From: Escherichia phage PhiR41_1
Sequence record: PV340561
DNA length: 64,000 nt
Direction: 5' to 3' (one strand)
Positions within the stretch are counted from its first letter, which is position 1, and each line of letters opens with the position of its first letter. The translations under genes were made by a program, and so were the position numbers. A model generated the notes under the pieces. The model did no database searches. It was given only the letters and a program-made list of their open reading frames with translations, and was not told where the DNA came from. Positions 3,125-3,970 of this stretch are shown piece by piece.

Positions 3125-3130
3125 CTGAGA

Positions 3131-3160
3131 AGAGGGCCAGAAACGGCCCTTTCTCTATAT
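3131..3160 (+). terminator. putative intrinsic terminator
   Basis: stem AGGGCC-agaaac-GGCCCT followed by TTCTCTATAT. Confidence 0.55.
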
Positions 3161-3253
3161 CCATCAGCTGCCGTAGGGAAATTTTCAGAAACGGCGAGGA
3201 ACGTATTCATTAGCCGACGGGAAACGGCCAGGATTTTTTCGGGAAACGGCTGC
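3138..3253. repeat. four direct copies of an iteron-like 10-mer (C/G)(A/G)GAAACGGC
   Basis: copies at 3138, 3186, 3219 and 3241; last two spaced 22 bp; located in about 600 bp without a convincing ORF. Confidence 0.5.
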
Positions 3254-3544
3254 ATTCGCCTTTATGTAGAAAAAACATCGGGAAGCTGGTGGAATCCAAC
3301 CAGCGGTTGTCGGACAGGTGAGCGGGGAAAATTATTATGACTTTCGTCGCCTGAGACATCCAGATTTCTTTCGTAGCGTAATCACATACGTGATTAAGTG
3401 GTGTGATTATGTGAAAAATCACGCGCACATAATACGCGAGCGGATACGGAACAAAACAAAATGCCGATCCGCGCCGACAAATAAACGCGGATCATAAAGC
3501 AAGACTAAAAGCCAATGATTAACCATACTCTATAGCGCAATATA

Positions 3545-3733
3545 ACGCGTTTTAAGCGCGTTAATGTGTTAAGTAATGGGTGTGTACTGGCAAGGATATA
3601 AAATCGCGTCTATGGCGTTATTTTGGCGCTTATTTTTATGTTGTTGGAGTGAGTTAAAGACAATAAAAACGCGCCATCATTGGCGCGTTATGGTAGGTGT
3701 ATTGGAAACGAAAAAAGCGCCCATAGTGGGCGC
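3545..3733. repeat. cluster of short GC-rich palindromes (ACGCGttttaaGCGCGT, GCGCCAtcatTGGCGC, GCGCCCAtagTGGGCGC)
   Basis: read directly from sequence; the last hairpin is flanked by A-run on one side and T-run on the other (bidirectional terminator-like). Confidence 0.45.
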
Positions 3734-3739
3734 TCGATT

Positions 3740-3970
3740 TTATTTGTGTAAACTGATTTTAAACCCCATTTCTACAAACGCTTTTAACATTAAAAATATA
3801 TCAGCGTCGTTCACGTCTGCTTTTTTTCGCTCCTGGTCGCTCAATAAGTCAATTTTGCGCGTCGTTTCATCTATAAGCTCGACTGCGCGCCCAGCGTAAC
3901 CAGCGATCCCAGCGATGCGATTAACATAATATTCATTATGGACGTTAACGCCAGCGATAAGAACAAACAT
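3740..3970 (-). CDS. hypothetical small protein (76 aa)
   Basis: ORF; hairpin with T-tract (minus-strand sense) immediately downstream at 3711-3735. Confidence 0.35.
   Translation of the reverse strand: MFVLIAGVNVHNEYYVNRIAGIAGYAGRAVELIDETTRKIDLLSDQERKKADVNDADIFLMLKAFVEMGFKISLHK

Follow-up and report, generated by a model that had tools for sequence, protein, structure and literature searches.

A conserved array of phased, iteron-like boxes in a non-coding gap of SSU5-type phage-plasmids: a candidate phage-mode origin or control site

What might a non-coding gap rich in direct repeats and palindromes do for a phage-plasmid whose plasmid-mode origin lies elsewhere? We consider this question for positions 3125-3739 of a 64,000-nucleotide (nt) stretch of Escherichia phage PhiR41_1 (sequence record PV340561; "the window" below means this whole stretch). 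The gap measures 615 base pairs (bp) and separates two convergent genes, one at 2642-3124 on the plus strand (160 amino acids, aa) and one at 3740-3970 on the minus strand (76 aa). An original prediction, made from the sequence alone, had described iteron-like repeats and stacked GC-rich palindromes here and had proposed an iteron-type origin or a regulatory hub, possibly the plasmid-mode origin of a phage-plasmid, or a structured small RNA. The repeats are best explained, on comparative grounds, as an iteron-type array acting at the DNA level, that is, as candidate protein-binding sites related to the repeats of lambda-type origins. The window itself is 96-99% identical to SSU5-like phage-plasmids of E. 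coli and E. fergusonii (Escherichia phage CMS-2020a, phage Cyrano and pRHB19-C05_2), and by this sequence identity its source is a phage-plasmid of the SSU5/pHCM2/pMT1 type.

A counterpart of the gap, about 580-640 bp long and roughly 60-66% identical overall, is present in 784 plasmid records, which take in Yersinia pestis pMT1, Salmonella Typhi pHCM2, phage SSU5 and many Klebsiella, Enterobacter and Citrobacter plasmids; the boxes described below are kept in 55 Yersinia records. The 160-aa flanking protein is never less than 66% identical among relatives, an extra scan of the genome collection for deeper relatives added only 6 loci, and neither gene flanking the gap has a Pfam match. The short open reading frames (ORFs) of the gap are conserved neither in position nor in frame among 19 non-redundant relatives, and their frame and extent vary even among close relatives; the gap is hence non-coding, as the original prediction had assumed in calling its ORFs unconvincing. 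A conserved translated ORF, which that prediction had named as evidence against itself, was looked for in the same 19 relatives and not found. In addition, no coding sequence (CDS) is annotated in the central stretch of the gap in any relative, calls being confined to the edges (SSU5_118 and, in three plasmid records, three CDS that underlie the match), and a hidden protein gene is thus ruled out. We found no description of the element in the searchable literature, and as far as that literature shows it has not been described so far.

The most prominent component of the gap is a set of four direct copies of the consensus sRGAAACGGC, which direct reading places exactly where they had been predicted, with starts at 3138, 3186, 3219 and 3241 and the last two 22 bp apart. 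Conservation was assessed in a 14-sequence alignment and then in a 73-sequence alignment cut to 19 representatives, to which the percentages for the boxes refer. The boxes and two associated sites are as follows.

3138-3147, plus strand: box 1, CAGAAACGGC; 91% conserved; lies in the loop and 3' stem of a terminator, T(+), listed further below
3186-3195, plus strand: box 2, CAGAAACGGC; 48 bp past box 1; 95% conserved
3219-3228, plus strand: box 3, GGGAAACGGC; 33 bp past box 2; 97% conserved
3241-3250, plus strand: box 4, GGGAAACGGC; 22 bp past box 3; 100% conserved
3258-3275, strand unassigned: conserved block GCCTTTATGTAGAAAA; exactly one 22-bp unit past box 4; 89% conserved
3704-3710, plus strand: GGAAACG word; invariant; abuts a second terminator, T1

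These repeats are clearly non-random. The word GAAACGGC occurs five times in the window when both strands are counted, where about two copies would be expected, and four of the five fall within 110 bp (3140-3250), all on one strand. The boxes are also the best-conserved positions, at 91-100% compared with 83% for the non-box positions of the array and 72-75% for the central segment, and the core derived from a weight matrix, sRGAAACGGCyrG, spans about 10-12 nt. Box 3 sits inside a dyad, GCCG-N8-CGGC (3213-3228), that resembles the lambdoid iteron TGCCGAATGGAAACGGCA, and blocks comparable to that at 3258-3275 follow other arrays as well (TATAGAGA in SSU5-type and TATACAGATC in lambdoid arrays). 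The GGAAACG word at 3704-3710 is possibly a fifth, partial box.

The arrangement of the boxes is held across the family. Using the pattern G[AG]AA[ACG]GG, we identified 62 distinct arrays among 77 relative loci gathered via the 160-aa protein. Neighbouring boxes in these arrays lie 22 bp (82 times), 33/34 bp (38 times), 46-49 bp (20 times), 31 bp (5 times) or 42 bp (5 times) apart, and the comparison of repeat spacing that had been suggested as a check of the original prediction therefore finds the 22-, 33/34- and 46-49-bp distances preserved. All 62 arrays are on the plus strand and none is on the opposite strand. Since the spacings amount to two, three and about four helical turns, the sites lie on one face of the DNA, an arrangement that is expected for cooperative protein binding, is meaningless for RNA and argues for a DNA-binding platform.

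Relatives carry a second array at another intergenic spot, in which as many as six units follow one another strictly every 22 bp; one such site lies just upstream of the window start, again directly past a terminator. Arrays always come after an intrinsic terminator and 270-330 bp upstream of the next promoter/operator module, and in relatives two arrays flank the early-gene block. In the complete relative NZ_CP057658.1 (about 75.9-77.5 kb; 45880-47520 of L014, reverse strand), 1.5 kb without an annotated gene just upstream of window position 1 contains about 800 nt of very CA-rich, G-poor sequence with repeated GCCATTACCCAA words, a terminator and then a six-unit 22-bp box array.

The box unit has counterparts in lambda-type origins. 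We scanned 2.9 million viral contigs for triple boxes with a spacing of exactly 22 bp (a two-box pattern being too unspecific) and obtained 14 stretches, SSU5-like elements included. In four of them (L040, L131, L096 and L228), four or five units of TGGAAACGGCAnnAnnGCCGAA lie inside a gene of the PHROGs category 'replication initiation O-like', whose C-terminal domain aligns with lambdoid O proteins, and these arrays are followed by TATACAGATC..ACAGATC and an AT/GATC-rich stretch, the classic layout of a lambda origin. Two TTATCCACA DnaA boxes adjoin the array of one further stretch, and an AT-rich tract adjoins that of another. One SSU5-type unit, GGGAAACGGGAGCATTGCCGAA, is identical to a lambdoid iteron at 19 of 22 positions, and blastn aligns lambdoid arrays with SSU5-type upstream arrays at 90% over 31 nt (E 1e-5) and at 75% over 52 nt (E 3e-6).

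Because the box unit forms strict 22-bp second arrays in relatives and is nearly identical to the iterons in the O-type genes of lambdoid prophages, we read the array as a putative initiator-binding site. Our preferred proposal, held tentatively, is that the gap carries an initiator-type iteron array that serves as the phage-mode (lytic) origin or as a control site derived from an origin. We favour it over a purely transcriptional role, and regard action as RNA, a centromere or mere relics as less likely. Under this proposal, the gap would be a conserved cis-acting DNA element from which terminators on both sides keep most read-through out. Its four boxes, which share one helix face and are spaced by multiples of about 11 bp, would form a landing platform along which a sequence-specific, probably winged-helix, protein oligomerises. 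Initiator binding there would make the array an origin of phage-mode replication, or an origin-derived control (handcuffing) locus, separate from the RepA/iteron origin of the plasmid mode. We infer the binding of a protein to the boxes, the identity of that protein and its service to replication. A 216-aa protein encoded at 4243-4893 on the minus strand (phrog_1513) is conserved, has no Pfam match and is predicted to consist of an N-terminal helical bundle and a C-terminal winged-helix DNA-binding domain; this model makes it a candidate for binding the boxes or the palindromes.

A number of findings weigh against a phage-mode origin or control site. Conservation covers just some 10 bp in each 22-bp unit, fewer than in classical iterons, and the blastn likeness to lambdoid iterons belongs to the upstream arrays of relatives and not to the window array, whose resemblance to those iterons stops at the core box, the 22-bp period and a single dyad (box 3). 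Beside the boxes there is no 40-bp stretch of at least 70% AT (the nearest are at 3380 and 3630) and no cluster of DnaA boxes, a single DnaA-box-like site with one mismatch being accompanied by no enrichment across the window. Searches with phmmer and hmmsearch detected no O-like protein among the six-frame ORFs of the window and the complete relative (E at least 0.08), hhalign of O-like proteins against both flanking families was negative, and tblastn with O-like proteins returned no gene remnant in the gap. The O-type that matches the array is rare in E. coli (7 of 5426 complete genomes), the neighbouring protein matches winged-helix domains in a generic way, and GC skew shows no inflection at the gap, only a plateau where gene orientation is mixed. 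With no trace left, a decayed O-type gene in the gap is ruled out.

As for the plasmid-mode origin, it is found at a different locus. NZ_CP057658.1 encodes a 364-aa RepA (Rep3_N) at its position 1, outside the window, with at least 15 iterons (G/A)TATGCTGTCAGCGGT on both sides of the RepA gene that are unrelated to the boxes; this locus agrees with the IncFIB typing of SSU5-type plasmids (PMC9169379). Round the whole of this 110-kb relative, cumulative GC skew falls monotonically until a sharp reset at the RepA/iteron locus, as would fit near-uniform gene orientation and/or unidirectional replication. A role of the gap as plasmid-mode origin, as originally suggested, is therefore ruled out. 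The iteron-like character of the proposed origin or hub, by contrast, is supported, since the array is conserved, phased and part of a family whose unit comes close to the iterons of O genes.

The predicted stacking of GC-rich palindromes is likewise real, with nine terminator-like hairpins against 2.6 expected, but most of the palindromes turn out to be common intrinsic terminators that close the two convergent operons. A GC-rich hairpin with a U-tract at an operon end is found at 3127-3160 on the plus strand and at 3735-3715 and 3689-3668 on the minus strand. These terminators, the remaining conserved or structured parts of the gap and a related hairpin beyond it are listed here.

3127-3160, plus strand: T(+), intrinsic terminator of the rightward operon, which ends with the 160-aa gene; stem GAGAAGAGGGCC/GGCCCUUUCUC, loop AGAAAC, U-rich tail
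3379-3438, strand unassigned: cluster of overlapping palindromes, GTGATTA/TAATCAC, including TAATCAC-N4-GTGATTA
3465-3494, minus strand: terminator-like hairpin GATCCGCG-N12-CGCGGATC; 5' arm not conserved in the majority clade
3572-3590, strand unassigned: conserved block GTAATGGGTrTGTAC; 86% conserved
3606-3640, plus strand: weak terminator-like element; words TGGCG...GCGCTTATTTTT conserved
3668-3689, minus strand: T2, second intrinsic terminator of the leftward operon; arms AACGCGCCA-N4-TGGCGCGTT, then UUUUUAUU
3715-3735, minus strand: T1, strong intrinsic terminator, bidirectional, immediately past the stop codon of gene 3740-3970; core GCGCCCA-N3-TGGGCGC with A6 and T tracts alongside
4213-4229, minus strand: second copy of the T1-type hairpin, between genes 4243-4893 and 3992-4195

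The fold at 3127-3155 on the plus strand reaches -17.7 kcal/mol (z -3.2), and the stem of T(+) covaries by clade (GGGCC/GGCCC versus GGGGC/GCCCC) around an invariant loop, GAAACG, that is part of box 1. For the T1/T2 tandem on the minus strand (3735-3715 with 3689-3668) the corresponding values are -30.3 kcal/mol and z -5.1. The arms of T2 are invariant among relatives, and its loop varies or flips. Loops are inverted between relatives both at 3677-3680 (T2, TCAT/ATGA) and at 3724-3726 (T1, TAG/CTA), in each case with invariant arms, a pattern that suggests flip-flop recombination or repeated copying of the hairpins. The hairpin GCGCCCA-N3-TGGGCGC does recur as originally predicted, its second copy lying at 4213-4229 and not, by one position, at 4212-4228; it occurs in the window only there and at 3717-3733 (0.01 expected), with the loop inverted from TAG to CTA. 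In relatives, T1-type hairpins come after each small-gene cassette, every 250-310 bp or so (commonly about 271), which points to a reused inter-cassette terminator or stabiliser. The structures in the middle of the gap are confined to particular clades. The arrangement at 3379-3438 is specific to the E. coli clade, and other clades share with it only GTGATTATGTGAA and ATACGCGAGCG. The E. coli clade alone has the GTGATTA palindromes and the two hairpins at 3465-3494 and 3422-3438, while other clades retain short words (CGCGGATC, ATACGCGAGCG) without a pairing partner; the unconserved 5' arm of 3465-3494 points to a clade-specific structure over a conserved CGCGGATC word.

Of the alternatives to a phage-mode origin or control site, the one that holds up best, though we think it rather unlikely, is a transcriptional regulatory or insulator hub. 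In this case a regulator, for example the adjacent winged-helix protein, would coat the boxes of both this array and the second one, some 3 kb upstream, and would thereby loop or silence the small early genes between the arrays, or reinforce termination of the convergent operons, with no role in replication. Such a hub would account for the phasing of the boxes on one helix face, the bracketing of the early-gene block by two arrays in relatives, the constant placement of arrays between an intrinsic terminator and the next promoter/operator module, and the adjoining winged-helix gene, and it would do so for an array at which an AT-rich unwinding element, DnaA boxes and an initiator gene are all missing. 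However, there is no conserved sigma-70 promoter downstream of the array, where the sole promoter-like match (3311-3338) is specific to the clade of the window, the early genes already have a palindromic operator of their own, and a hub would leave unexplained why the unit is nearly identical to iterons of O-type origins. With regard to operators, at least nine genes carry the palindromic motif AGAAAACAAnnTGTTT in the interval from a promoter-like module to the ribosome-binding site (16 matches against 1.2 expected), with sites at 452-467, 936-951, 1841-1859, 2606-2624, 13673-13716, 41101-41116, 44035-44050 and 56648-56666. The genes that bear it include small early genes, a parA-like gene and a DnaB-like helicase gene, and the motif appears to be an operator used across the genome, or else an RNA hairpin beside the Shine-Dalgarno sequence.

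A further and, in our view, improbable reading treats the arrays as "orphan" lambda-type iterons. They could make up a phage-mode origin with a new kind of initiator, outside the O, Rep_3 and DnaA families, for which the conserved 216-aa winged-helix neighbour would be a candidate. Alternatively, they could capture the O-type initiators of co-resident lambdoid prophages, either for piggy-back replication or to titrate and exclude the phages concerned. A role as decoy for E. coli lambdoid phages is disfavoured by the rarity of the matching O-type in the complete E. coli genomes.

An element that works at the RNA level seems to us quite improbable. Here the boxes would act in the plus-strand transcript, for instance as loop motifs for an RNA-binding regulator such as the FljA-like protein of 5192-5710, or the gap would encode a small RNA (sRNA) or an RNA derived from a 3' untranslated region. 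It is true that every array is oriented like the plus-strand genes, that box 1 supplies the invariant loop of a covarying terminator hairpin, and that GCCG/CGGC stems, with a few compensatory changes, can close boxes 2 and 3. Yet most boxes lack a closing stem, spacing in multiples of 11 bp would have no meaning in RNA, and no conserved internal promoter was found. The structured small RNA of the original prediction finds no support either. Rfam gave no match in the whole window (best sub-threshold score 24 bits against a cut-off of 56), no known RNA family thus being found, and alifold revealed no conserved structured RNA across the gap, its covariation term amounting to just -3.4 kcal/mol. 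The central hairpins differ between clades, and their restriction to the E. coli clade argues against a structured RNA common to the family. The RNA-seq tables for Y. pestis list no transcript at the gap homologue on pMT1, and the pMT1 sRNAs sR082, sR083 and sR103 map to other loci (PMC3770706).

The FljA homologue (repressor of phase-1 flagellin) that this RNA-level variant invokes is encoded 1.5 kb off, at 5192-5710 on the minus strand (Pfam Flag1_repress, E 1e-68), and is conserved in pMT1, pHCM2 and SSU5. FljA-type proteins stop translation of fliC mRNA (PMC2652032), and the presence and conservation of the homologue suggest that the phage-plasmid may shut down host flagellin translation. 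The E. coli fliC 5' leader, GAGCCGACGGGTGGAAACCC, whose sequence was confirmed in 4513 E. coli genomes, has an 11-nt word plus GGAAAC in common with box 3 of close E. coli relatives (Cyrano, ATGAGCCGACGGG; common part GAGCCGACGGG..GGAAAC), and at 3211-3228 of the window the match to the leader, TAGCCGACGGG, is 10 nt. Although this match could speak for a role as RNA, it is a post-hoc 11-mer confined to one clade, and its significance is doubtful.

We assign a similarly low likelihood to the view that the gap consists of ordinary terminators and relics, the boxes being leftovers of an old lambda-type origin or of a duplicated spacer and now without function. Terminators do explain the strongest palindromes, the family is young and narrow, as the high minimum identity of the flanking protein illustrates, and the central segment is a clade-specific mosaic. 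But the boxes are invariant or nearly so while neighbouring bases, even those of the terminator stem, change, their spacing and orientation are held in 62 distinct arrays, and an O-like coding sequence has left no trace.

Very unlikely, finally, is a centromere-like partition site, at which a centromere-binding protein would work together with the small ParA of 41152-41820. Phased direct repeats are typical of type Ib, II and III centromeres, TubR centromere-binding proteins are among the structural matches of the adjacent protein, and the dispersed centromeres of the phage-plasmid N15 provide a parallel. The ParA operon has no repeat array adjoining it: the stretch 41152-42180 encodes a ParA/MipZ-like ATPase of small size together with a partner of 117 aa, with no direct-repeat centromere beside them. 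But the array does not adjoin that operon, the ParA gene lying 37 kb away, and Yersinia is outside the ten most frequent genera listed for the small ParA, yet 55 Yersinia records keep the boxes; the distance and these records together weaken the idea. Moreover, partition of pMT1 depends on a P1-type par system. A packaging site was considered and set aside, the terminase genes being about 9 kb off with divergent genes in between.

Phage-plasmids of the SSU5/pHCM2/pMT1 type are common in E. coli, Klebsiella, Salmonella and Enterobacter, include Y. pestis pMT1 and also bear resistance genes. For their switch from single-copy plasmid to phage replication, a conserved and insulated iteron-like array that does not coincide with the RepA origin offers a concrete and easily tested candidate, either as phage-mode origin or as its control site, and a handle for finding its initiator or regulator. 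If it proves to be a regulatory platform only, it would still be a family-wide cis element that current annotations leave blank. A fimbrial usher gene (826 aa), neighbouring genes and a possible regulator gene lie beside an integrase gene at about 49400-54110; this region is missing at the same position in the E. fergusonii relative and thus looks like a cargo island.

Comparison with known systems helps to place the gap. Like a terminator zone between convergent operons, it has a canonical hairpin and U-tract in T(+) (3127-3160) and in the tandem T1/T2 (3735-3668), but terminators cover only about 120 of its 615 bp and leave the phased boxes and the central blocks unexplained. The succession of iterons and GC-rich palindromes recalls the oriV of IncQ plasmid RSF1010, and the element has its own helicase and primase. 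However, no RepC-like protein was found, and the palindromes of the gap carry T-tracts and sit at operon ends, which marks them as terminators, unlike the ssi palindromes of RSF1010 oriV. Iteron plasmid origins and control arrays (P1 oriR/incA, F and pSC101; Rep_3 family) also consist of direct, helically phased sites, and the four boxes exceed the three direct repeats at helical-turn spacing that are the minimum for an iteron-type origin; the presence of multiple arrays per genome, moreover, has precedents in P1 (ori and incA) and P4 (ori and crr). In contrast to such origins, the gap has no cognate rep gene adjacent to it in the window and no DnaA boxes or AT-rich unwinding element (13-mers) beside its iterons, and the real Rep_3 replicon lies elsewhere. 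In a lambda-type origin the array lies inside the initiator gene, between the N- and C-terminal domains, whereas the window array is intergenic, outside any gene, in a phage-plasmid without a detectable O-like protein; it is followed by no AT/GATC-rich stretch, its spacing is irregular (48/33/22) and only the core of its unit is conserved. The likeness to a lambda-type origin extends to four or more direct repeats at a spacing of about 22 bp, a common core, GGAAACGGC, with one SSU5-type unit up to 19/22 identical, the GCCG-N8-CGGC dyad in box 3 and the TAT..AGA block past the last unit.
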